This document shows, piece by piece, positions 3,048-26,347 of a stretch of DNA of 37,179 nt. Origin of the DNA: a virus (lineage: Duplodnaviria; Heunggongvirae; Uroviricota; Caudoviricetes); the IMG/VR virus record IMGVR_UViG_2909303794_000005; one strand, written 5' to 3'. The position numbers were made by a program, and so were the translations under genes. The notes beneath the pieces are model-generated. The model was not told where the DNA came from and did not search any database. It saw only the letters and a program-made list of their open reading frames with translations. Each line of letters starts with the position of its first letter. Positions within the stretch are counted from its first letter, which is position 1.

Positions 3048-4223
3048 TTAGGCAGCGTCTAAGAGAGTATTAAAGTATTCATCCATTAAATCAGGACTGT
3101 CGTCATCAATACAGAAAAATTCTGGTTTATTGATGCCGTAGAAGTGAGTATGTAGCTTGAATGTATCCTCATCAAATACATCTTTCGGAGATACCCACAT
3201 ATTAGCCTCGTCCGGTTGATTGGTTAGGTAGTCATAAACCAGTTGTTGTAAGTGTGGTAACTCATCAATAGTCAGAGTTTCCGACCATCCATCCTTGAAA
3301 TCTTTGTAGGGTGCGGCGTGAGTCTTGAAGCGTTGTTTTACTTCATGCTCTAAATCGGCAGCTTTCCAACCATCCTCAAACTCATGAGTAAAGATTAAGC
3401 GGTGAGTGAAGTTGCTCTTTCTGGTTTGTTCTCTCATTCGTTCTTCTGGTTTTCGGGTAGTGATTCCAAATTTAATAAATTTGTCATCTAATAATTGAAT
3501 GTAGAAACTAGCCTTACCCTGATAAGTCCGGTTAGACAGTTGCACCAGTTGGTCTTTAATGCAAAGCGGACAAGTGAAAGAATCAGCACATCTTAAATGA
3601 GATTCCCATTCGTGGTTATGTGACTTGCAATAGGTTTTAAATTTAACATCCTTTAGGTGTGGGGTGTTTATGATGAATCCTTTGAAGATGTAAGGTGTAG
3701 TCTCGCAACGTGCATTGATGAGTGTCTCTTTGTCCTTAATAACTTCATCAAAAGTCTTGCCACTTCTTACCCGTTGGGATTTTTCAGCCATACAGATTTT
3801 ACAATCAAAATCAAAATCATCCTTGAGAGCATGTAATAGAGATGGCGTCATGATTTGATTGTGTATAGGACACAAAACACGGGCTTTTGTCTTGTTGCGC
3901 CCTTTCCATTCTCCTTGCCATCCTAGAAACTTCTTTCCCTTCTCATTACAACGAGATTCCATTTTCAACCATACAGCCTTTTCAGTCTGGAATAACTCAC
4001 CCCCGTTAGTATCTTCCAGTTTGCGTAATTTGTAGTCCTTATATTCTTGTGTGTCTAAATTGTATAACCGGAAGTAAGTATGATTACCTTTCCACGGTAG
4101 GATAAATCCACCAAATACAAAAGTAGGTTCCAGTTTAGTGATGATTCGTTGTTGGTACTCTTCCGGCGATAAACCGCGAGTTTTCTTAACAAAAGGAATT
4201 TCGGCAGCGTAAGCAAGTTTCAT
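3048..4223 (-). CDS. T5orf172/GIY-YIG-like domain protein with Cys-rich zinc-ribbon-like region
   Basis: Start chosen at internal ATG (MKLAYAAEIPF) with RBS GAGGA 7 nt upstream, not the upstream ATG of the 428 aa ORF. Motif FYIQLLDDKFIKFGITTRKPEERMREQ...DGWSETL matches the T5orf172 pattern from memory; CxxC pairs in the N-terminal half. Confidence 0.45.
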   Translation of the reverse strand: MKLAYAAEIPFVKKTRGLSPEEYQQRIITKLEPTFVFGGFILPWKGNHTYFRLYNLDTQEYKDYKLRKLEDTNGGELFQTEKAVWLKMESRCNEKGKKFLGWQGEWKGRNKTKARVLCPIHNQIMTPSLLHALKDDFDFDCKICMAEKSQRVRSGKTFDEVIKDKETLINARCETTPYIFKGFIINTPHLKDVKFKTYCKSHNHEWESHLRCADSFTCPLCIKDQLVQLSNRTYQGKASFYIQLLDDKFIKFGITTRKPEERMREQTRKSNFTHRLIFTHEFEDGWKAADLEHEVKQRFKTHAAPYKDFKDGWSETLTIDELPHLQQLVYDYLTNQPDEANMWVSPKDVFDEDTFKLHTHFYGINKPEFFCIDDDSPDLMDEYFNTLLDAA

Positions 4224-4378
4224 AGTAGTTTCCTCTAAAATAATAAGCTCACTACTATTTATTAGAGAAAATTGTCTTACTATTGCATTCTCTATCTGAA
4301 TGTGTATAATACGCGACCCTAAATCCCAAACCAACCATATTGAGGTTATGCCTATAAGTTAAAAAAAGTGAGGTCTAT

Positions 4379-4948
4379 ATGATTCCAGTAATGGCTAAAG
4401 ATATTGTTTTTACTCCTAAATCCTCCCGTGCTGTAACTCCATCGGCATTAGAACAACGCATTCTGACTCACATCAAAGATAAGGACTTACCATTAGTCTT
4501 TCATGGCTTTCTGGGTGAGTTTAAAGGGCTTCATTCAAGAATTGCTCTAACATGTACCCGATGCGGTAATAGAGCCGACAAATCAGCTACTAACCTGCTT
4601 AATGAAGGTAAACGATGTGTTTGCTTCAATAGTGACTACTTTCAATATAAAGCGGGTGTGCCTTATCTCTATGTAATGAAGTCTGGGGATATTGGTAAAT
4701 TTGGTGTTACAAAGTCAATCATCAAGCGACGTGTTAATCTGGGTGTACGCAATCCCGGTCATAACTTTGATATTGTCTTTGCTGGTGAAATGCCATCAAT
4801 GAAACATGCACTAGCCACTGAAAGAGCAATAAAGAGATTACTGGATGTGGGTATAGGCGGGATTGAATACGGCAAAACTGAAACATTCCACTACTGCAAT
4901 AAATCACTAAACAATATAAAGAATATTGCAAGTGTGGAGTGGAACTAA
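4379..4948 (+). CDS. T5orf172/GIY-YIG-like domain protein with zinc-ribbon-like N-terminus
   Basis: RBS GTGAGG before ATG 4379; CTRCGN...CVC cysteine cluster, then YLYVMKSGDIGKFGVTKS...RR...GKTETF resembling the T5orf172 domain. Confidence 0.45.
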   Translation: MIPVMAKDIVFTPKSSRAVTPSALEQRILTHIKDKDLPLVFHGFLGEFKGLHSRIALTCTRCGNRADKSATNLLNEGKRCVCFNSDYFQYKAGVPYLYVMKSGDIGKFGVTKSIIKRRVNLGVRNPGHNFDIVFAGEMPSMKHALATERAIKRLLDVGIGGIEYGKTETFHYCNKSLNNIKNIASVEWN

Positions 4949-6438
4949 TGCAAGATATTAAAATTCATTTTCAAGATTACAGTTTCGTTAAGGTTGATTG
5001 CTCTCCTTCTATCGGAATGGAATTAAGAGATTATTTCTCTTTTGAGGTTGAAGGGGCTAGGTTTAGCCCCCGATACAAGTATTCAGGCTGGGATGGACGA
5101 ATAAGACTGTTTACGCATGAAAATACCCTACCAATTGGACTATTAAAAACATTGGGTGTCTTCGTTAAAAATATGGGGTATTCAGTCTGGATTGACCCGC
5201 GATTGCTTGAGAAGGAAGATGTAACCAAAGAACAGATTGATTCATGGATTGACTCTTTAGAAGTGTATTCCGGTTCCAATAAAATCAATCCTTACTGGTA
5301 TCAGCGTGAGGCAGTCTTTCAGGGTATTCATAATCGCCGTAGAATGCTGGTTCTTCCTACCAGTGCGGGTAAGTCATTGATTGCTTGTATGCTGTCTCGT
5401 TGGTACTTAGAGCATTACACCGGAAAGGTGTTAATCATTGTCCCGACTACATCGCTAGTGGTTCAAATGAGGGATGATTTCATCGATTATCGGTTATTCC
5501 CTTATGAAGCAATCCATACAATGATGAGTGGTAGCGGGAAACATCCGGGAGACAGGTTAATCACGGTTAGTACCTGGCAATCAGCTTGCAAGATGCCCCC
5601 TGAATGGTTCAAACAATATGGAATGTTGATAGTTGATGAATCGCATAAGGCTAGTGCCAAAAATATTACCAATATCATCAATGGAATGAATCATTGCCAG
5701 TTTAAAATCGGCATGACTGGTTCCCCGAAAGAATCAAAATGCCATCTTTTACAGTATGTCGGGCTTTTCGGTGATATTTCTAAGATCGTGAGTATTGACC
5801 GCCTGATGGAAGAAGGCCAGGTGACAAAACTGAAAATTAACTGTCTTTTCCTTCGTTATACCGATGAGGAATGTAGCGCGGTTAAGGGTAGAGAATATGC
5901 GGAAGAGATCAAGTATATTACGTCTAACCCACGACGTAATAAGTTTGCTTGTAATTTGGCGCTAAAACTCGCTAAGAAGGGCGAAAACGTATTCCTTATG
6001 TTCCGCAATACTAAGCACGGAAAACTTATGTATGATGCGTTACAGAAGGTACACGACAAGGTTTATTATATTGACGGTGGAGTTAAGACAGAAGAACGTG
6101 ATGAATTTAAGAAAATGGCGGAGGGTGACACCGGGATCATTTGTGTTGCGTCTTATGGTGTGTTCTCTACTGGTGTTTCAATTAAGAATTTGCACCATGT
6201 TATTTTCGGTCATCCAGTGAAGGAATCAACTATCGTTCGTCAGAGTATCGGTCGTGCATTGCGTAAACATGGTTCTAAGGATATTGCAACGGTCTGGGAT
6301 CTTATCGATCATTTGTGTATATTTGGTCGTAACGGAAAAATCAAGCATAAAAATTATGCGGTAAAACATGCACTTGAGAGAATCCGCTATTATCTGACCG
6401 ACAAGTTCAGCTATGCAACTAAAACAATTGCTATATAA
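4948..6438 (+). CDS. uvsW: UvsW-like SF2 DNA helicase
   Basis: ATG 4948 overlaps the upstream stop (TAATG) with GGAG 7 nt upstream. N-terminus MQDIKIHFQDYSFVKVDC and later blocks (LPTSAGKS Walker A, DESH, VASYGVFSTGVSIKNLHH, GRALRKHGSKDIATVWDLID) closely resemble T4 UvsW as recalled. The ORF track's upstream GTG at 4939 is less likely. Confidence 0.85.
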   Translation: MQDIKIHFQDYSFVKVDCSPSIGMELRDYFSFEVEGARFSPRYKYSGWDGRIRLFTHENTLPIGLLKTLGVFVKNMGYSVWIDPRLLEKEDVTKEQIDSWIDSLEVYSGSNKINPYWYQREAVFQGIHNRRRMLVLPTSAGKSLIACMLSRWYLEHYTGKVLIIVPTTSLVVQMRDDFIDYRLFPYEAIHTMMSGSGKHPGDRLITVSTWQSACKMPPEWFKQYGMLIVDESHKASAKNITNIINGMNHCQFKIGMTGSPKESKCHLLQYVGLFGDISKIVSIDRLMEEGQVTKLKINCLFLRYTDEECSAVKGREYAEEIKYITSNPRRNKFACNLALKLAKKGENVFLMFRNTKHGKLMYDALQKVHDKVYYIDGGVKTEERDEFKKMAEGDTGIICVASYGVFSTGVSIKNLHHVIFGHPVKESTIVRQSIGRALRKHGSKDIATVWDLIDHLCIFGRNGKIKHKNYAVKHALERIRYYLTDKFSYATKTIAI

Positions 6439-7218: not shown

Positions 7219-7902
7219 TTAAACGTATTTCATGCGCGATTTAATGTGCTTATTGATGTTTTCAAGCATCATTGCTTCGTTGCTTTCCCACGATCCTAGC
7301 GTCGAATAACGAGTAGAAATTTTATCCGATTTAACGGCAACGATTCGCTTACTCTGTTTCTGTATGCGTTTCTCTAAGCGACGTTTTGCCACCGCCGATC
7401 CATTCCTAGCGCGTTTGGTTCGGGATTTCTTAGGCTTGTACTTCTTCATGATAAAAGTCCCTTCCTGGTTCTCTACCTTGATGAAGTTGCCATTTTCGAT
7501 GTTACGCATCATCTTACCGCCTTTGATGGCCTTAATGTTCCCGTGGGCGTCTAAGACCTTACCGTTGGCGATTGGCACTAGCTTATTGATTTTGCCACCA
7601 TCGAAATAGTGTTTCAGATAGTCATCCTGACTGCCGATCTTCTTGTCCTTATCCCTTGCGCCCTTGATGAAGATTTGGTGTCTCGTCCCTGATCGGTTCT
7701 TGTAGTTGGTATTACCTACAGCTTGCTGAGTCCAGCGAGTAGGTCTATCAACATTCTTGTTAATCTTCTTCTGTAGTGCACGAGCAGCAAAGATCGCCCC
7801 TTCCCCTATCGCCCTTTCGAATGTATCGGTTGCCTTTTCAGACCATTGCCGTAACGCTTTCTTAGTCCTTAGAGCGTTTCGTTTATTGGTACTGGTTGCC
7901 AT
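7219..7902 (-). CDS. basic Lys/Arg-rich hypothetical protein
   Basis: RBS AGGGGG upstream; 227 aa with many K/R clusters (KKYKPKKSRTKRARN); function unknown. Confidence 0.45.
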   Translation of the reverse strand: MATSTNKRNALRTKKALRQWSEKATDTFERAIGEGAIFAARALQKKINKNVDRPTRWTQQAVGNTNYKNRSGTRHQIFIKGARDKDKKIGSQDDYLKHYFDGGKINKLVPIANGKVLDAHGNIKAIKGGKMMRNIENGNFIKVENQEGTFIMKKYKPKKSRTKRARNGSAVAKRRLEKRIQKQSKRIVAVKSDKISTRYSTLGSWESNEAMMLENINKHIKSRMKYV

Positions 7903-18440: not shown

Positions 18441-18472
18441 CAATAAAAAAGCCCCACCATTAAGGCAGGGCT
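18441..18472 (-). terminator. rho-independent terminator after putative tail tube gene
   Basis: Minus-strand AGCCCTGCC TTAA TGGTGGGGCT (G-U wobbles in RNA) followed by TTTTTATTG. Confidence 0.6.
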
Positions 18473-18603
18473 TATAATTAATCTTTAGCCTTGCGGCTTC
18501 GTTTAGCTGTGGCTTTCGCCGTAACAACCTCTAATTCTGGAATCACCACCGCTTCATGTTCCGGCTGTGGTTCCGGTTCTATTAAAGGAAGTTCTTCGTT
18601 AGT

Positions 18604-19080
18604 TCATCCGGCAGTATTGAAGATTTCCTGTTTCAGCGGTTTGCCGTCCACTGCAAAGGTAAACTCTTTAGTTACCACTTCTTCATCGCCACCGTTCATA
18701 GCAACTTTAGAAATAAAGCCGTTGAAAGCGGTGCGAATACCAGTCTGTTTTGCTGCGTCAACGTAATATTCTACTTTAATCTGAATACGAGTACCGTCTT
18801 CGGCAGCTTTGATCAGTTTTTCATGTACCGCATCGCCTGGGATGTAGTTAACGGTCAGAGTCAGATCAGGAACGTTCAGCTTCCCTACCAGTTTACGGTT
18901 ATACTGAGAAGAGAAGGATTTAACTTCTACAGTACCGCGTTCGATAGCAGTTTCCGGGAATCCGGCGCACTCTTTAATTTCTTCATAGCCCTCATGGTTG
19001 AGAGCGGTGTTAGTGGTATCGGCGTGATAGAACAGACTTACCAGACCACCAGTAAAAATATCTTTAAATTGCTGAGACAT
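18604..19080 (-). CDS. putative major tail tube protein
   Basis: RBS AAGGGG upstream; 158 aa; followed by a strong terminator and a conserved readthrough extension shared with the capsid gene (see findings). Assignment is by position and expression signals, not by a recognised motif. Confidence 0.45.
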   Translation of the reverse strand: MSQQFKDIFTGGLVSLFYHADTTNTALNHEGYEEIKECAGFPETAIERGTVEVKSFSSQYNRKLVGKLNVPDLTLTVNYIPGDAVHEKLIKAAEDGTRIQIKVEYYVDAAKQTGIRTAFNGFISKVAMNGGDEEVVTKEFTFAVDGKPLKQEIFNTAG

Positions 19081-19110
19081 AGAATTACCCCTTAATTAAA
19101 ATTGTTATTA

Positions 19111-19129
19111 CGGGGGAACTAGTCCCCCG
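19111..19129. terminator. GC-rich hairpin after tail fibre gene
   Basis: CGGGGGA ACTAG TCCCCCG inverted repeat between the fibre stop and the next RBS. Confidence 0.35.
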
Positions 19130-19136
19130 ACTTTTA

Positions 19137-22100
19137 TTATTTAGTTGCTTTGAGTTCGGCAATTTCTTTCTGTAATGCTTCGATCTGGGCTTTATATTTG
19201 GCGTCCATTTCCTGAATAGCTTTAATAATCAAGGCATTAACAGCGGAGTTAGAAATTGTTAAGATCTCTTCTGGCTTATCTGGATCTCCGATCTTTGAGG
19301 TTGTTACTGCTTCCGGCAATTCTTTTTCAAGATCCTGAGCAATAATACCAACTTCATGAGCAATGACAGTACGGTCGGTTAAAGACTTAACCTTATCGTA
19401 GGTGTACACAGTCAAGCGATTAATTTTATCGGTTGCATTCTCTTTATACTCTTCCTTGTTGATTTTAAGGCGAGCATCAGAACGAATATACACATCGTTA
19501 AAGTTACCATTGCGACCAGCTTGGAAATCACCGGAGGCGTTAAAGTCAAAGTTTGTGGTATGAATATGAAGACGTGCCATAGCATTAGTAATAACACCAC
19601 TAGGAACGTGTACACCCATTGCTGCGATGTGGTCTAAACCCCATTTGGTCGCTTTCCATACGTTATATGCGGAAGTTTGAGCATTAGGACAATCAACCAA
19701 TAAGCCAGCAGCGCGAGTTTTCCATTCTGACCATGCACCACCTTGTACTTCTCCGCGAATCAAACCACGGTCGCTACCGTTTGCATACCCACGTTCTAAG
19801 CGAATCATACCAGTCTGGAAAACATGGTCAAATTCTCCGCTGTTATAGTTTCGAATGCGCATTTGACCTGTGCTATCACCCCAGATAACACCACGGTTAG
19901 TACCATTAGCATCCTTAAACCAGAGTTCTTTATTACCATCTCTATACATCTGAATTTGGTTATTGGTACGCAAAACATTAGTAACCACCAAATCACCATT
20001 TATCTGAGCACGACCACCCGTTTCTAAACTACCAGCAACTCTGAATTGAATCGAACCGTTAGAATCACGCTGAGAATATAGATGATAGCTTGTTTCGTCA
20101 GCAAGTTCCCACACCTGAGCGCGAGAAGTTCCATTACCCCAATTCTTAATAAAAAATCTAGATGCAGATCCTTCGCTACGTTCCCAATATAATCGAGACC
20201 CTAAATGTGTTGTTGCATTTATTTCTACTTGACGATTTTCATTGTTGAGACGCATTAAATGATTACCAGCATCACTACCACCTAGTGTAACGTTACCATT
20301 GGCTAGGCTATAGATGAACGGCCTAAAGGTATTCCACGGACCCATAGTGTCGCCTGATTTTGTGCTCATCAGATAAACGTTACTACCGTCATTTCGCCAC
20401 CATGAACCATAGTTACCATATACAGTACGGAAGCCATCAGCATATAAAGAAATGAATTGACCGTTGGTATAGACTCGCTTCATGTTACCTGTCTGAAATT
20501 CGATCTGTCCGTCGATATGTTGACGAATAGAACTGCCACCTACATCGCTATACCATTCAAAAACGTTAGTATCAGCATTGGCATAACCGATCCAACCTTG
20601 ACGCGTAATATTTCCAGTCCGGTTATCTTGAAACGCAATGTGGTTAGATTGACCAGCAGGTCGGCGTAGTGTAATGACATTAGATCCGCCATTTAACAGC
20701 ATACGACCAGAAATAATATTACCCTTATGAGTTCCGGCAATTGAGCTACTAGATTCAATAGTCATAATTTCCTGAGCATCAGTGCTACCAGTAGCCAGAC
20801 GATAGCTGGCACCTTGAACAGTCTCATGCCAGATCATTTCATTATAGTTACTACGGAATTTACGAATATATTTTCGTCCAGTACCCCTATCATTACTCAA
20901 GTGAACAATATCATAACTGTTTTGTGTGTTATCGTCAAAACTCAACACACCACGTTTATTTTCAGTATTAAAAAGAGTTACGTTGCGACCACCGATAACA
21001 CCAACGGAAGGTTTAATTAACGTGGCTTCCGGCGTATCATAAACCGTCAAACTTACATAAACAGATTTCCCATATTCGACAATAACGTTATCGGTATAAC
21101 GCTGATATTTCACGTAGATATCATAGTTATCACCGGAAGTATTGACAGCAAATACCTCAAAATCTTTGTTTGTATTTCTACGGTATGCAATTACGTTAAG
21201 ACCTTTAGGTCTATCGTTACCACTACGCAGAAGAATTTCTACTACGTCAACCTGATCATATGCCGTAACGTTGTAACCATTACCACCATGAATACGGAAA
21301 AACACACTACGCCCGTTTTGTGGAATTGTTGCGGTTGCCAATTTGAAATATGCAGATACGTTTTCGCTAGAATTAGGAACAGACATAGTGACGTTTTTAA
21401 CAAACATCTTGTCAACTTCTGCTTTAGTGTATGCACCGATTTCGCCAGGAGTCGGCTTATCACCTTCGTGATACATCTTATAGCTAAAGTTCTTCTGTCC
21501 TTCTCTATCAAAACCATAGGTTTCAACACGAGATCCACCAGACGCATAACGGAAAGTAAATCCGCGACCGTGAGCTTTACCGGCAGAGTGAGGAACGTTA
21601 AGAGTTAGATCCATGAGTCCATCTTGACCATTGGTACGGAAAGCACCAAAGTAGTTAAGATCTCTCGCTGTCTGGTCTTCCAAATAGTTAGCTGTTTTGG
21701 TTAACAGATACCCGCCGTGCTTAGTGTTGGTATTCTTCTTGATGTAAAGAGCATCGTTACTACCTTCAATACCATCAATTCGACGGTTAGCGGCTGCGAT
21801 CGCTGAATCAGTATCAGTTTTGTTTTTGTCAACCTTTGCGTTAATAGCGGTATGGTTGCTATTCACCGTCCCTGTAAGGTTACTGATTTTAGTATCAGCA
21901 TCGCGTTTATTGTTCGCTACCGTAGTTTCAATGGCTGATTTGTTAGCTGCAACGGTACTCGTTAAGCTGGAGATCTTGGAATCAGCATCAGACTTGTTAG
22001 CTGTAACGGTTTTGGTCAGATTGCTAACATTGGTGTTAGTGGTATCAACACGGCTATTGATCGCGGTGTTATTGTCATTAACCGTCGTGGTTAAAGCTGC

Positions 22101-22577
22101 GATTTTATTGTCCGCATCTCGTTTATTATTTGCTACAGTAGTTTCTATAGCTGATTTGTTAGATGCAACTGTCCCCGTAAGGTTATTGATCTTAGTATCA
22201 GCATCGGTTTTATTTGCCGTGACTGTCTGGGTTAAGTTACTAACCGTGGTGTTAGTAGCATCAATGCGCTTATTGGTCGCTGTATCTTTCGTGGTAATAG
22301 TCTGATTCAGTTCAGCTTTAGCACTAGCCAGATTATTAGCGGCTTCTTGTTTGTTGGAAGCAATAACACGGTCAGTGCTAGTTTTGTTATTGTCTACTTT
22401 AGTGTTAAGTTCAGCGTGTTTTTCTGGAGAAACACTAATTTGGACTACGTTATTATTTTTGTCTTTGGTGTAAATCACATGATCCGCCAACTGTAAGGCG
22501 ATTTCACCCTGTGATAATTGTTCCGGCGTTGGCTTTTTACCAGCCGTCTGTGTGCGTTTAAATTGGATCGACTGCAT
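19137..22577 (-). CDS. tail fibre with C-terminal intramolecular chaperone (peptidase S74-like) domain
   Basis: RBS GTGAGGTGA upstream; 1146 aa; C-terminal SDARLK...LTDRTVIAHEVGIIAQDL...AVNALIIKAIQEMDAKY resembles the self-cleaving chaperone domain of T5 L-shaped fibre / endosialidases as recalled. Confidence 0.8.
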   Translation of the reverse strand: MQSIQFKRTQTAGKKPTPEQLSQGEIALQLADHVIYTKDKNNNVVQISVSPEKHAELNTKVDNNKTSTDRVIASNKQEAANNLASAKAELNQTITTKDTATNKRIDATNTTVSNLTQTVTANKTDADTKINNLTGTVASNKSAIETTVANNKRDADNKIAALTTTVNDNNTAINSRVDTTNTNVSNLTKTVTANKSDADSKISSLTSTVAANKSAIETTVANNKRDADTKISNLTGTVNSNHTAINAKVDKNKTDTDSAIAAANRRIDGIEGSNDALYIKKNTNTKHGGYLLTKTANYLEDQTARDLNYFGAFRTNGQDGLMDLTLNVPHSAGKAHGRGFTFRYASGGSRVETYGFDREGQKNFSYKMYHEGDKPTPGEIGAYTKAEVDKMFVKNVTMSVPNSSENVSAYFKLATATIPQNGRSVFFRIHGGNGYNVTAYDQVDVVEILLRSGNDRPKGLNVIAYRRNTNKDFEVFAVNTSGDNYDIYVKYQRYTDNVIVEYGKSVYVSLTVYDTPEATLIKPSVGVIGGRNVTLFNTENKRGVLSFDDNTQNSYDIVHLSNDRGTGRKYIRKFRSNYNEMIWHETVQGASYRLATGSTDAQEIMTIESSSSIAGTHKGNIISGRMLLNGGSNVITLRRPAGQSNHIAFQDNRTGNITRQGWIGYANADTNVFEWYSDVGGSSIRQHIDGQIEFQTGNMKRVYTNGQFISLYADGFRTVYGNYGSWWRNDGSNVYLMSTKSGDTMGPWNTFRPFIYSLANGNVTLGGSDAGNHLMRLNNENRQVEINATTHLGSRLYWERSEGSASRFFIKNWGNGTSRAQVWELADETSYHLYSQRDSNGSIQFRVAGSLETGGRAQINGDLVVTNVLRTNNQIQMYRDGNKELWFKDANGTNRGVIWGDSTGQMRIRNYNSGEFDHVFQTGMIRLERGYANGSDRGLIRGEVQGGAWSEWKTRAAGLLVDCPNAQTSAYNVWKATKWGLDHIAAMGVHVPSGVITNAMARLHIHTTNFDFNASGDFQAGRNGNFNDVYIRSDARLKINKEEYKENATDKINRLTVYTYDKVKSLTDRTVIAHEVGIIAQDLEKELPEAVTTSKIGDPDKPEEILTISNSAVNALIIKAIQEMDAKYKAQIEALQKEIAELKATK
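19140..19481 (-). other. intramolecular chaperone domain of tail fibre (predicted autoproteolytic release)
   Basis: Begins at the Ser of IR-SDARLK (residue about 1033); domain boundary inferred from the family motif. Confidence 0.55.
21831..22265 (-). repeat. in-frame tandem repeat in tail fibre N-terminal shaft
   Basis: Two near-identical 72-73 aa units (DATNTTVSNLTQTVTANKTDADTKINNLTGTV... and DTTNTNVSNLTKTVTANKSDADSKISSLTSTV...) with about 24 aa sub-periodicity. Confidence 0.6.
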
Positions 22578-22606
22578 CGAATCACCTCACTATAAAACAG
22601 GAATAA

Positions 22607-22624
22607 GGGAGGCGTTAACCTCCC
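22607..22624 (-). terminator. GC-rich hairpin after the 277 aa structural gene
   Basis: GGGAGG CGTTAA CCTCCC, followed on the minus strand by TTATTCCTGTTTTAT. Confidence 0.4.
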
Positions 22625-22654
22625 AACGTTCATGTTTTATTTAGGTAAGCAATC

Positions 22655-23488
22655 TTAATACTCACCGAAATCGATCCGGTCCGTCTTAGCCACTGCGCCA
22701 ATTTCGCTAGGTGTCGGTTTCTCATTGGTGGAATATACCTTGATCCATTCAGAACGACCGTTTTCCTGAATATTTCGGACACGTAAACGCGGTGCGCCAG
22801 AAGTATTACAGGTTAATTGCCATGCGCCATGCTCATTAGCTTGAAGATGAATTAACGATGTATCAGCACCATAAGGGTTAGTGCTAGCCGTTCCTTTGTA
22901 GGTTACGAAACGGTTTCCTGCTAATGCCTCGCTATCAATACCGCCCGTGAATGGATGTACACCAGCACCGATACCAAAATCACCCTGACGTAAGATACGG
23001 CCTTCGGTAGCAATACCCCTTGCCAAAATCCCGCCATCTGGTTCAAGTTTAAATTCCAGTGTTACAGCTTTGTTATCACTACCACGGGTTTTATGTGATG
23101 TGACGTAAGCATCATAGATGACATAGTAACCAGTGTTAGCAGCACTATAGCCAGAGTTCACAACATAGAACATACGGAAGCGTAAAGGTGTTTTATCCTC
23201 TACCGCTTTCATCAACATTGCTTGATGTTCATCGTCAAGAACACGGTTTAACGTGAGTGTTGTCGGTTCCAGTCTACGATAACCAGCAAGTTTCCCCGTA
23301 GCGTCCTGATCGTACTCTTCCAGAGTTTCTATCTCTGTGGATTCTGTTAGCGTAGGGAATGCTGCGACGTTCTCAATAGAACTAAAGCTAGGATCGAAAA
23401 AGTCGACCTGATTGTCTAGCTGGTTAGAGATTGAAATCTCTACATGGCTTCCAGTAAAAATATCTAAGTTATCATGCGTAATATTCAT
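22655..23488 (-). CDS. virion structural protein with fibre-like C-terminal motif
   Basis: 277 aa between connector genes and the tail fibre; C-terminal NEKPTPSEIGAVAKTD echoes KPTPGEIGAYTKAEVD inside the fibre. Confidence 0.4.
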   Translation of the reverse strand: MNITHDNLDIFTGSHVEISISNQLDNQVDFFDPSFSSIENVAAFPTLTESTEIETLEEYDQDATGKLAGYRRLEPTTLTLNRVLDDEHQAMLMKAVEDKTPLRFRMFYVVNSGYSAANTGYYVIYDAYVTSHKTRGSDNKAVTLEFKLEPDGGILARGIATEGRILRQGDFGIGAGVHPFTGGIDSEALAGNRFVTYKGTASTNPYGADTSLIHLQANEHGAWQLTCNTSGAPRLRVRNIQENGRSEWIKVYSTNEKPTPSEIGAVAKTDRIDFGEY

Positions 23489-23497
23489 TATTACCCC

Positions 23498-23920
23498 TTA
23501 AAAACGCGCTAGATAAGAAAATTTAAGGCTAAGTGTCCCAACGATACCCCCATCACTAGAATCATCGTCATAATCGGTATTAGAAGCTACTGGAGTGATA
23601 TCTGAAATAGAGAAGCCCAAATCTTTAAATCGTGGGTTATCCGGCTGAATCTGGATTATCTGGCAAATACCCTCATGGATTTTCGTTTCATGAATCTGAG
23701 AATATAATTGCATTTCGATAACGCATTCAGCTTGCATTGCATTACCACCACGGACCCTAGTGTAAGTCTCATTCATTCCGGTGATCCAACAAACCACGTC
23801 ATCACTAAAGCCTTGCTGAGTTTGTTCTACGTTTAAAGCCAGACCTAAATCTTGTTCGATAATATCTTGCAAGGCGCGTTTGATTTTCAGTCTAGGCATA
23901 TTATTAACGGTAGCGAGCAT
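23498..23920 (-). CDS. head-tail connector / neck protein candidate
   Basis: Start at ATG (MLATVNN...) with RBS AGGGGG 6 nt upstream; position downstream of capsid gene. Confidence 0.35.
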   Translation of the reverse strand: MLATVNNMPRLKIKRALQDIIEQDLGLALNVEQTQQGFSDDVVCWITGMNETYTRVRGGNAMQAECVIEMQLYSQIHETKIHEGICQIIQIQPDNPRFKDLGFSISDITPVASNTDYDDDSSDGGIVGTLSLKFSYLARF

Positions 23921-24194
23921 GTGTACCCCCTGCCAGAGTAATAAAGCAATCAGAAGTATTATCACCATTGCGCTTAACGTATTGAACTTTGAAACGCTGA
24001 TTTTCTACAATGACAATATCACCTTGCTTTAAGTCTCCCTCACGACAGAATAGAAATTCTGTTTCTGTCATTACCCCTTGTTCGTCGGTAGTAGTAATTT
24101 CATGGTAAGCACGAATTGATTTACCACCTTCCACCGAAAATACAGGAGCACTTCGGAACATTCTTGATAATTGTGATTCTGATAATTTGAACAT
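23904..24194 (-). CDS. head-tail connector / head completion protein candidate
   Basis: RBS AAGGGGG upstream; 96 aa directly after the capsid gene terminator. Confidence 0.35.
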   Translation of the reverse strand: MFKLSESQLSRMFRSAPVFSVEGGKSIRAYHEITTTDEQGVMTETEFLFCREGDLKQGDIVIVENQRFKVQYVKRNGDNTSDCFITLAGGTHARYR

Positions 24195-24221
24195 AGTTAC
24201 CCCCTTTATGGAGTATTTACA

Positions 24222-24251
24222 TACAAAAAAGCCCCACCGTTAGGCAGGGCT
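24222..24251 (-). terminator. rho-independent terminator after major capsid gene
   Basis: Minus-strand AGCCCTGCC TAAC GGTGGGGCT followed by TTTTTTG; same element as 18441-18472. Confidence 0.6.
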
Positions 24252-24343
24252 AATTATTATTTTGCTTTCGGTGGACGTCCCACCTTTTTAGCTGTGGCTT
24301 TCGCCGTAACTACCGGAATTTCTTCCGGCAATTCTTCGTTATT

Positions 24344-26347
24344 TCACTCTTCGCCAATTTTCAGAACTTTCAGAGCTTCCGGCTGTGCTACAACGTAGTC
24401 CAAATCTACAAAGATACGAGGCACTACCGCACCACGGTCACGGTATGTAGTTAGATCCATATCCAGTTCCAGACCGCCCCACTCACCGATGGTAATACCG
24501 GAGAAGTCACCCAGAACGATGTGGTCTGCCGGAATAACGCCAGAAGTAACTACTTCGTAACCAGCCAGTTTGCCGTTTTCGATGATATAACCGGAAACGC
24601 CGTTATCTTTCAGGGTAGATTCCAGTTCAGCAGCAGTTGCACCGCTCATCGCAAACTTGATCGCCTGAGCAGGAACGCCAGCGTCGGTCAGTGCTGCAAT
24701 TTCTTTCAGGAAGTCTTTGTAAGAGAAAGCAGCTTTCTTGGTAACGCGGTTAGCGTCTACCAGTTGCTTAACCAGACCAGCCGGACCACGGTCGTTAGCT
24801 TTATCAGACAGAATCAGTTGTTCCAGTTTGATGCGAACAGCTTTGTTAATGTGATCAGTGATCAGGGTAGCGATGCCCGGAACGGTTTTCAGCGACTGAC
24901 GGCTGATCGGGTTGCCACCAGCAAAAGTCTTAGGAGACAGTTTCACGTTTGCAAATTCAGCTTTGCCTTCCGGTGCAGCACCGTTTTCATCAACGAAGCC
25001 GAAAGCGTCAACGCTGGATTTAGTCATTTTTGGAATAGCGGTCGGGGAGTTCAAGCCACTGTAAACAGTCACACCCAGACGACCCAGAACAGATTCCGGC
25101 ATCAGCATTTCGATGTAGGATTCAGTCATCAGTTTTTCGTCAGTGATAGCGGTCAGGTCGGCTTTGGTGTTACCAGCAGAAGCAGCACGCATAGCAGCAG
25201 CCGGAACGAATACAGAGCCACCGCGAGCAGCACGACCACGCTGCATTGCAGCACCAGCAGCCATAGCGGAATATTCAGCTTCGTTAGCACCCAGAGCAGC
25301 ACCATCTACCAGAGAGCGAATTACGTTGTTCAGGTCAAAAGTTTTTTCCATTTTAGAGTCCTTAATTTGTTCGTTATTACGTTGAGCATTGACGAGATTA
25401 TTTAGTGCCTTAGTGCGGAATGCTTCCGGCGTCATGTCTTTAATTGCCAATGCGCGTGCTAATTCAGAGTCATCAATATTTAGTTCGCGTGCAATTTCGC
25501 GAATTTCTTCTTCGTCTTCTTCGGAACGTTCAGCCACTTCTTCGGTTTTTTCTTCTTCAACCGGAGCGGCTTCACGTTCTTCTTTTACTTCTTCTGTTTC
25601 CCGAACAGTTGAACTATCATCATCAACACTTTCAGGATGTTTAGCGTCTTTTCCGTCTTCGAGATTTTCATCTTCTTTATTCTCTTCAACTTGGCGCTCT
25701 TGAGTTTCTTCAACTTTCGGTTCTTTATTTTCTTCTACCGGAGTTTCTTCAACCTGAGCTGATTCTTGTTCTTCTTTGATTTCTTCGATTTGTTCTTTAG
25801 TCATATCGCGTTTAGCCCCCAAATTAACTGTGATAGTATTTAGAGAGCGATTTAAACCGACCGTATCGTCTGCGGGAACGGTGACAAATGAGAGTTCATA
25901 GGGTGCCCACTTAGTAACAATCAATTGTCCTTTGGTGTAGTCGATGTGATATTCTTTAATGTCATAACCGACAGAAATTTTTTCCATCGTACCTTCAATG
26001 ACTTTATTGCGAATATCATTAGCCAAAGTGCCATGCTTAGAGAATTTAACCAGAGCACGGCCTACGTTATCCGCATCGATTCGAGCGTTACAAACGACAC
26101 CAATGTGATTATCGAAAATATGATTGAACAGCAACGGAGCGTTATTATTCAGACGAGACAGATCAACCGCTTCCGGTGTATGTACCAGAATTTCATCTAA
26201 TACCACCATTTCTTGATTTTGCTCATCCCAGAATTGGCGCTGATAAGGCTGTTCACTGGAGAAAGCAATTTCAAATTCGTATTGATCGTTATGCCCTTCG
26301 TTAATAACTCCACCGTAACCGTTAAGATCGCGGCGAAATTTAAGCAT
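24344..26347 (-). CDS. prohead protease - acidic scaffold-like linker - major capsid protein fusion (HK97 fold)
   Basis: N-terminal about 170 aa with HK97-type protease motif ELSFVTVPADD; Glu-rich middle region; C-terminal about 350 aa with HK97-like capsid features. RBS AAAGGTGA upstream. Confidence 0.8.
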   Translation of the reverse strand: MLKFRRDLNGYGGVINEGHNDQYEFEIAFSSEQPYQRQFWDEQNQEMVVLDEILVHTPEAVDLSRLNNNAPLLFNHIFDNHIGVVCNARIDADNVGRALVKFSKHGTLANDIRNKVIEGTMEKISVGYDIKEYHIDYTKGQLIVTKWAPYELSFVTVPADDTVGLNRSLNTITVNLGAKRDMTKEQIEEIKEEQESAQVEETPVEENKEPKVEETQERQVEENKEDENLEDGKDAKHPESVDDDSSTVRETEEVKEEREAAPVEEEKTEEVAERSEEDEEEIREIARELNIDDSELARALAIKDMTPEAFRTKALNNLVNAQRNNEQIKDSKMEKTFDLNNVIRSLVDGAALGANEAEYSAMAAGAAMQRGRAARGGSVFVPAAAMRAASAGNTKADLTAITDEKLMTESYIEMLMPESVLGRLGVTVYSGLNSPTAIPKMTKSSVDAFGFVDENGAAPEGKAEFANVKLSPKTFAGGNPISRQSLKTVPGIATLITDHINKAVRIKLEQLILSDKANDRGPAGLVKQLVDANRVTKKAAFSYKDFLKEIAALTDAGVPAQAIKFAMSGATAAELESTLKDNGVSGYIIENGKLAGYEVVTSGVIPADHIVLGDFSGITIGEWGGLELDMDLTTYRDRGAVVPRIFVDLDYVVAQPEALKVLKIGEE

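Follow-up and report, generated by a model that had tools for sequence, protein, structure and literature searches.

In-frame extensions behind the UGA stop codons of the major capsid and tail tube genes of an Escherichia coli prophage: probable products of stop-codon readthrough

This work concerns two short open segments in a 37,179-nucleotide (nt) stretch of tailed-virus DNA (Caudoviricetes; IMG/VR record IMGVR_UViG_2909303794_000005; hereafter the window), which is an E. coli prophage 100% identical to that of strain 14EC007 (NZ_CP024131, about 2.96-2.99 Mb). One segment lies in frame behind the UGA stop codon of the major tail tube gene, and the other lies in frame behind the UGA stop codon of the major capsid gene. 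Comparison of the window with its relatives indicates that low-level readthrough of both stop codons by tRNA-Trp probably yields minor, extended forms of the two proteins, a reading to which we assign a probability of about 0.6. Readthrough is favored because insertions and deletions (indels) inside the extensions are multiples of three, because the frame is free of stops, and because the stop is invariably TGA-A where an extension is present as against TAA-T where it is absent.

The tail tube gene (158 amino acids (aa) in the list of open reading frames (ORFs); 18604..19080, minus strand) ends ...FNTAG-TGA with its stop at 18604-18606, and the adenine at position +4 (18603) completes the putative leaky signal UGA-A (18603..18606, minus strand). 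The original prediction that this stop is followed by 41 codons, a TAA and a terminator is an accurate description of the window sequence: the 41 in-frame codons (TNEELPLIEPEPQPEHEAVVIPELEVVTAKATAKRSRKAKD; 18481..18603, minus strand) would encode an acidic Pro-rich spacer, VVTAKATAK and a basic end RSRKAKD, and the TAA that closes them (18478..18480, minus strand) lies 4-5 nt ahead of the stem of an intrinsic terminator (18441..18473, minus strand; hairpin 18473-18449) made of a 10-base-pair (bp) G+C-rich stem and a T-run. The capsid gene encodes a fusion of prohead protease, scaffold-like linker and HK97-type major capsid protein of 667 aa (24344..26347, minus strand; Pfam Peptidase_S78 and Phage_capsid; phrog_617, E 9e-93) with the C-terminal end ...KIGEE-TGA-A, the stop lying at 24344-24346 and the +4 A at 24343 (minus strand). 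Behind it are 28 in-frame codons (NNEELPEEIPVVTAKATAKKVGRPPKAK; 24260..24343, minus strand), the parent cassette of the tail copy, then TAA TAA (24254-24259, minus strand) and an intrinsic terminator (24230..24251, minus strand) to which that of the tail gene is related.

The two extensions are homologous, as had been proposed from the presence of the same nucleotides around VVTAKATAK at both loci. These nucleotides form an exact 23-nt core, GTTACGGCGAAAGCCACAGCTAA, which encodes VTAKATAK and contains a mini hairpin GGC-GAAA-GCC (18511-18520) in the tail copy (18503..18525, minus strand), and which is identical in the capsid copy (24288-24310, minus strand). The 23-mer occurs exactly twice in the window, both times on the minus strand, where none is expected by chance even with 3 mismatches. 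NEELP is also common to both extensions, spelled with different synonymous codons for Leu (CTT/TTG) and Pro (CCT/CCG), as is the terminator AGCCCTGCC...GGTGGGGCT. Of the motifs originally listed as shared, NEELP and the VVTAKATAK-basic segment hold up and IPE does not, the tail reading VIPE and the capsid EIPV. In IMG/VR the core motif occurs 36 times, each time (36/36) in frame behind the TGA-A of a capsid or tail tube gene.

Stop usage within the window sets these two genes apart, with 32 of the 38 ORFs examined ending in TAA and TGA-A present at only two, the capsid and tail tube genes, which are the most highly expressed virion genes. An alternative genetic code or a suppressor tRNA was considered and rejected, as TGA terminates four other ORFs, all long ORFs are intact under code 11, and a tRNA gene search of the window found none. 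UGA followed by A is reported as a context in which the tRNA-Trp of E. coli misreads the stop especially readily, with a +4 U strengthening termination (PMC5289835, citing Engelberg-Kulka 1981), and UGA readthrough in this host is a competition of Trp-tRNA-Trp against release factor 2 (PMC10570021). The other two frames of the window sequence contain 4+4 stops in the tail extension and 1+2 in the capsid extension. The window alone is weak evidence, and it is stop usage together with the relatives that carries the case.

The comparison covered 17 E. coli prophage loci, 41 IMG/VR loci and contigs from Salmonella, Edwardsiella, Providencia and Hafniaceae, with 33 motif-anchored IMG/VR stretches and 5 metagenome contigs as further sequences (individual loci carry L numbers below). 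Related copies are present in 22 of 5,426 complete E. coli genomes, and most are 85-100% identical in DNA. No near match was found in phage and plasmid collections, the nearest phage being DCP80 with about 43% protein identity and no simple readthrough extension, and a scan of representative genomes with the capsid profile found no relative. TGA-A is present in 54 of 54 extension-bearing capsid sequences from E. coli and Salmonella, in which the capsid body is down to 55% and 38% identical, and also in the Providencia capsid; tail tube genes with an extension have it without exception too (30 in the locus survey, and further ones on 8 new IMG/VR contigs and on the 5 metagenome contigs). Replacement of TGA by TAA, TAG or a sense codon (including TGG) was not seen in any of about 90 copies, and the residues ahead of it vary (KIGEE, HISE, HISAE, KKVD, AASE, SLPA; NTAG, FTAG, NTAA, TAGG). 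An apparent fused homolog (P0001, 198 aa; L018, ENA ERZ27280761 contig k141_243218) was rejected, since its DNA has TGA-A and the W comes from the caller's use of a TGA = Trp code on a short contig. Tail tube alleles of 72% identity or less carry no extension and end in TAA-T, often TAATAA, directly before the terminator, and more distant capsids do likewise.

Frame 0 of the extension contains no stop in any variant (about 90 copies from E. coli, Salmonella and Providencia), as against 1-6 stops in each of the other two frames, and its length ranges over 25-45 codons in capsid genes and 36-41 codons in tail genes. Indels inside the capsid extensions measure 3, 3, 3, 6, 24 and 27 nt, and 48 nt between short and long forms, all multiples of three; those inside the tail extensions measure 3, 6 and 18 nt, and the Providencia cassette has a 6-nt insertion. 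In the adjacent terminator loops and T-runs the gap lengths are 1, 1, 1, 1, 1, 2, 2 and 3 nt. Gaps in multiples of three are found in 11 of 11 cases inside the extensions versus 1 of 8 downstream (p of about 2e-4, a hypergeometric estimate). The C-terminal tips are basic in differing sequences (KKVGRPPKAK, KKQRKTKE, KRGRKPKE, KKERKTKAK, KRSRKAKD, KRGRKAKN, KRRKSK). The extension is found with three terminator types, and L017 combines a tail extension with the terminator type that is usual behind extension-less tail genes; this separability argues against a pure 3' untranslated region (UTR) or terminator module.

The 158-aa ORF is a lambda-like siphovirus tail tube protein, a call that was also made in the original prediction and that stands because of the PHROG profile, the lambda gpV fold and the position upstream of chaperones and tape measure; it is independent of the extension, which does not itself support the identity as had been claimed. 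The protein matches phrog_158 ('major tail protein', E 8e-21), scores just under the cut-offs of the lambda-like tail tube protein families PF16460 and PF16461 (27.3 and 24.9 bits versus 28.4 and 26.1), and is named 'phage tail tube protein' by the Prokaryotic Genome Annotation Pipeline (PGAP) in the identical 14EC007 prophage. In an AlphaFold2 (AF2) model the core best matches the lambda gpV tube domain (8k36, 7t2e, 7t4f; Foldseek E about 1e-6), followed by Hcp proteins. The gene order in the window is tube, gp38-like adhesin, tail assembly chaperone (TAC), T-like ORF and an 809-aa gene, whose homolog in the related prophage L009 is annotated 'phage tail tape measure protein'. An opposite-strand ORF nested antisense in the tube gene (18491-18766, plus strand, TTG start) was rejected, with nothing in its support.

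In the AF2/Foldseek comparison the tail extension starts where the tube domain stops, which is the point at which the external immunoglobulin (Ig)-like domain of lambda gpV begins, and the phrog_158 profiles run on to 376 positions, far past the tube domain. Model confidence (pLDDT) is below 50 across the whole tail extension (residues 159-198), predicting disorder, and Pfam and PHROG searches of both extensions found no domain. A possible AT-hook (PF02178) in the capsid variant KKVGRPPKAK was rejected, scoring 14.2 bits (E 0.04) where the cut-off is 17.4; neither the tail extension nor the other variants gave a match. On the model, the tail extension is a disordered peptide and not a folded decoration domain. 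Comparison of synonymous and non-synonymous differences gives a ratio of the two (pN/pS) of 0.42 for the tail extension and about 0.7 (up to 0.73) for the capsid extension, the upstream coding sequences of the same loci giving 0.14 and 0.24. These values suggest that the tail and capsid peptides are constrained weakly, as expected for a disordered linker. The parallel originally drawn with recoding-added decoration domains of capsid and tail proteins is thus a partial one: extensions do lie behind TGA-A on both genes, and the folded domain gives way to predicted disorder and relaxed constraint.

In the mechanism that we propose, termination at UGA-A would be the usual outcome at both genes, and a small fraction of events would see UGA decoded by host Trp-tRNA, after which translation would proceed through the extension to a strong TAA just before the terminator. 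The predicted junctions are ...FNTAG-W-TNEELPLIEPEPQPEHEAVVIPELEVVTAK for the tail and ...VLKIGEE-W-NNEELPEEIPVVTAK for the capsid, and the products would be minor C-terminally extended subunits with a flexible acidic Pro-rich spacer and an Ala/Lys/Arg-rich basic tip. Capsid and tube subunits number a few hundred in a siphovirus virion, and readthrough at 1-5% would give each particle a handful of extended subunits on its head and on its tail. In HK97-fold capsid proteins, segments added at the C terminus, as in T7 10B, are displayed on the outside. Because of this surface display, and because the tail extension starts at the external-domain point of lambda gpV, the tips would by analogy most likely form a few surface 'whiskers' per virion. 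The cationic tips could plausibly mediate weak electrostatic adhesion to anionic polymers of the cell surface or mucus, function being the least secure step. The occurrence and level of readthrough, the surface location on the capsid, adhesion, and hairpins as stimulators are all features that we infer.

Several observations weigh against this reading. Frame 0 stays open in 10.5% (tail) and 24.2% (capsid) of dinucleotide shuffles, so that an open frame in a single sequence is not significant, and natural E. coli isolates may read through UGA rarely. The extended proteins are only inferred from sequence, the best phage match in GenBank having 43% protein identity. Variable sites are distributed over the three codon positions as 17/21/24 (capsid) and 11/7/14 (tail), a sign of weak peptide constraint; changes in the VTAKATAK core are mostly non-synonymous with third positions nearly fixed, and the core is identical in Salmonella despite 55% capsid identity. 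This pattern points to nucleotide-level constraint on the core or to frequent exchange of the module, and sequence comparison indicates that part of the nucleotide conservation, including the near-fixed third positions, is at the level of RNA.

The RNA evidence comes from the capsid. The short capsid cassette has an 11-bp hairpin AAUUGCCGGAA-GAAA-UUCCGGUAGUU (24308..24333, minus strand), in which pairing begins at the 11th nt past UGA; behind it come the mini hairpin GGC-GAAA-GCC in the shared core and then GGUGG...CCACC (window 24296-24333 and 24270-24284). Over seven distinct sequences, including Providencia, 99.2% of the cells in the capsid hairpins pair, and the three helices contain 4 pairs with double-sided changes versus 0.6 in shuffles (1 of 500), slid controls being far lower. 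The compensatory changes (A-U to G-C, U-A to C-G, C-G to A-U, U-A to C-G) are found in L051 and Providencia (L109, about 4176-4260), L035 has a GU to AU change, and the 6-nt insertion of Providencia sits in the hairpin loop. Long-form and Salmonella cassettes carry, by eye, CUUCCCCC...GGGGGAAG and CUCUCCCC...GGGGAGAG, and the minimum-free-energy structure begins 11 nt past UGA in most variants of all three cassette types. In the tail extension the predicted hairpins have no double-sided changes and the same percentage of paired cells as shuffles, and thus no covariation support; an apparent covariation seen by eye ('CCAC/GUGG to CUAC/GUAG') failed under the tested structure. No Rfam family was matched over 17800-24800 at E up to 1. 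L105/L106 (CAGGAGCA/UGCUCCUG versus CAGGAGAA/UUCUCCUG) and DCP80 likewise have a hairpin a short way past the capsid stop.

The alternative that survives best, though we regard it as unlikely, is that the segment is an untranslated structured 3' UTR module, consisting of hairpins that stabilize the highly abundant capsid and tail tube mRNAs or of a small RNA derived from the 3' end with the 23-nt core as its seed, and that the open frame is an ancestral leftover. Such a module would account for the compensatory changes that maintain the capsid hairpins, among them GGC-GAAA-GCC to GGA-GAAA-UCC within the VTAKATAK core, and for a core that is near-invariant at third positions and common to paralogs and genera; it would also fit a synonymous variation (pS) that is lower in the extensions (0.19-0.22) than in the upstream coding sequence (0.26-0.32), with a fairly high pN/pS, and a segment that always ends at an intrinsic terminator and moves between capsid alleles as a module (L008-L010). 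What it leaves unexplained are the indels in multiples of three (11 or more classes) against mostly 1-2 nt in the neighboring non-coding DNA, an in-frame stop missing from every copy in three genera, and a constant TGA-A in a phage that otherwise uses TAA, with TAA-T where the extension is lacking. Nor does the segment match an Rfam family or have a complementary target of at least 20/23 nt in the window, and covariation support does not extend to the tail copy.

Translation might instead matter and the peptide not: a readthrough ribosome reaching the TAA 4-5 nt before the stem would disturb the terminator hairpin and so set downstream transcription or 3'-end stability. The stop of the extension does always lie a few nt before the stem, in capsid and tail genes and with three terminator types, and a relaxed peptide constraint together with a strictly open frame is what such coupling would produce. 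The geometry is not specific to the cassette, however, as extension-less relatives have the TAA of the gene itself at the same short distance from the terminator; moreover, the composition (acidic and Pro-rich, then Ala/Lys/Arg) is kept across differing sequences, and related capsids carry similar tails constitutively. We consider terminator coupling distinctly improbable.

A tolerated leak, in which low-level translation is selectively neutral and TGA-A and the frame persist by shared ancestry or recombination in a young prophage group, is still harder to sustain and merits little credence. The high DNA identity of most copies speaks for it, as do the fact that chance not infrequently leaves a single frame open over such a length and the loss by a GAA to TAA change of a 5-aa basic tail in Hafniaceae prophages without obvious loss of the phage. 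Yet the cassette has been kept in Salmonella, where the capsid is 55% identical, and in Providencia despite many substitutions and in-frame indels; the tail tube gene has gained a second copy in which the middle diverged and the frame, TGA-A and basic tip were kept; and neither TGA to TAA nor TGA to TGG is seen in any copy. Finally, insertion of selenocysteine at UGA, directed by a hairpin 11 nt downstream, is rejected and can be given practically no weight: the spacing in the short capsid cassette resembles that of the minimal E. coli selenocysteine insertion sequence (SECIS), but the hairpins are without SECIS features, the GAAA loop lacking both the G-U residues and the bulged U required by SelB, the apical sequences being wholly different among the three cassette types, and no Rfam match appearing at E up to 1.

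For readthrough of a coding cassette, which remains the preferred reading, the distribution of the two copies indicates an order of events. The capsid cassette accompanies every tail tube allele and is present in Salmonella and Providencia, whose tail gene has none, and the tail cassette is restricted to a single group of tail tube alleles (at least 89% identity). In its 3' half (...GTTACGGCGAAAGCCACAGCAAAACGAGGCCGCAAGGCTAAGAAT...) the tail cassette is almost the same as the RGRKPKE-type capsid cassette, and its 5' end resembles the NNEELP type. On these sequence relationships the tail cassette is a recent, lineage- or allele-specific duplicate of an older capsid cassette, and the tail copy has since diverged in its middle (EPEPQPEHEAVVIPE) with frame, TGA-A and basic tip retained. 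Neither this duplication nor the covarying hairpins of the capsid cassette had figured in the original prediction. Exchange is also seen among capsid genes: L008-L010, L087 and L090 have a capsid allele 38% identical over its C-terminal region and yet an extension almost identical in nucleotides, which places a recombination junction at about the stop codon and implies that the cassette travels with the downstream head-tail genes. The extension-less tail tubes of L021, L022, L109, L114 and L115 (Salmonella, Providencia) end in constitutive short basic tips (...GLMGRK, ...AASARK, ...SAAARK), a miniature of the tip behind UGA in the E. coli lineage.

Related tails are seen in other arrangements in sister-clade capsids (about 45% identity). 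Some of these end constitutively in ...PAEAKAAKQ, ...PAEVKAALKASA or ...GETRKAK, the short tail being fused in frame in L057, L060, L063, L101 and L102. In others a Pro/Ala/Lys-rich basic tail spans the stop in the -1 frame and is preceded by lysine slip motifs close to that stop: the canonical heptamer A_AAA_AAG in L105 (IMG/VR 2617271085_000004, about 2210-2330), A_AAA_AAA in L100, GUA_AAA_A in L106, GUA_AAG in Edwardsiella L023 (about 1770-1860) and GAA_AAG in phage DCP80 (L065, about 7760-7900). The -1 tail of L023 (...VKSGRKPKTDN) is recognizably homologous to the ...KRGRKPKE of E. coli and Salmonella. Among Hafniaceae prophages the capsid of L113 ends ...PAGAEAKSKD*, and L110-L112 have ...PAGV-TAA-AKSKD*, a GAA to TAA change having removed the five-residue basic tail, which is still in frame behind the stop.

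These sequences suggest that the same kind of tail may be attached by readthrough, by -1 frameshifting or by direct fusion across the family, the idea of three routes coming from the fused and -1-frame tails of the sister clade together with the window's own G-T site, GUA AAG UAA. A bolder version, which we hold only tentatively and think doubtful as a whole, is that of a portable recoding cassette. In order, it would comprise UGA-A, a 10-nt spacer, structured RNA in which pairing begins at the 11th nt past the stop, codons for a basic tip, and a strong stop ahead of a terminator. The tail tube gene would have received its copy from the capsid gene, the hairpin would stimulate readthrough, and the lineages would supply a needed, sub-stoichiometric basic whisker by readthrough (E. 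coli, Salmonella, Providencia), by -1 frameshifting at A_AAA_AAG-type sites (L105, L100, possibly Edwardsiella and DCP80) or by fusion. Apart from SECIS, we know of no precedent for a bacterial hairpin that stimulates readthrough.

Other genes of the tail region were noted in passing. The likely -1 frameshift site of the G-T tail chaperones lies at 17572-17580 (minus strand; ORFs 17572-17880 and 17192-17542), with the -1 frame open from AAA (17578-17576) into the T-like ORF; PGAP has two separate genes here, and matches of the T-like ORF to Pfam Phage_TAC_13 and Phage_tail_T are both sub-threshold. The gp38-like adhesin gene (17923-18429, minus strand; Pfam Gp38_N, E 4e-15), between the tail tube and chaperone genes, is absent from L017, L019-L022 and Providencia and is thus a mobile insert in the tail operon. 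A 277-aa protein (22655-23488, minus strand) combines a tail-tube-like domain at its N terminus (phrog_158, E 9e-9; about 27% identical to the 158-aa tube protein) with a C-terminal part resembling a fibre; the 1146-aa side tail fibre gene directly follows its gene, and the protein may serve as a collar of tube fold to which the fibre is anchored. In L017 (E. coli E275a) the side tail fibre gene is split by an IS2 insertion (4184-5412).

Frameshift-made minor capsid and tail forms, and UGA readthrough in RNA phages, are already known. In Q-beta (Allolevivirus) host tRNA-Trp decodes the leaky UGA of the coat gene at a frequency of a few percent to give A1, a minor C-terminally extended virion protein, as is proposed here; however, Q-beta is a single-stranded RNA phage with one such gene and a large, folded, essential extension, whereas the present case is a tailed double-stranded DNA (dsDNA) prophage with a predicted disordered peptide of 28-44 residues on two structural genes. 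In Listeria phages PSA, A118 and A500, recoding yields long forms of the major capsid protein and of the major tail protein alike (reviewed in PMC5009743). Each of the two genes gives a normal product and one lengthened at the C terminus through recoding close to the 3' end, as is proposed for the window, but the Listeria phages use +1 or -1 frameshifting, whereas the extension here is in frame 0 and would be reached by readthrough. The two Listeria extensions are, to our knowledge, not known to be copies of each other, unlike the tail extension here, which is a duplicate of that of the capsid. T7 (gene 10A/10B), T3 and Lactobacillus phage A2 produce a minor capsid form with a C-terminal extension by -1 frameshifting (PMC5009743). 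The likeness lies in the minor extended capsid form, whose extension is displayed on the capsid surface in those phages, that of T7 not being Ig-like; they differ in the use of -1 frameshifting and in having no matching extension of the tail tube. Lambda gpV shares the tube-domain fold and an appendage that issues from the C-terminal end of the tube domain, decorating the exterior of the tube in lambda; its appendage is constitutive, folded (Ig-like) and on every subunit, whereas the one described here is behind a stop codon, short and predicted to be disordered. The literature searched describes no tailed dsDNA phage with stop-codon readthrough of the major capsid or tail tube protein, which is not proof of absence.

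Confirmation of the reading would make the case a practical warning for annotation, as PGAP leaves both extensions unannotated and a metagenome gene caller joined the tail extension only by reading TGA as Trp. The arrangement also suggests a natural low-copy display site on head and tail, and, if the reading is correct, it would offer a simple natural system for UGA readthrough in E. coli that depends on context and possibly on structure. For the tailed phages themselves, readthrough would join the repertoire of recoding, and one short peptide module would have been copied between the two most abundant proteins of the virion.

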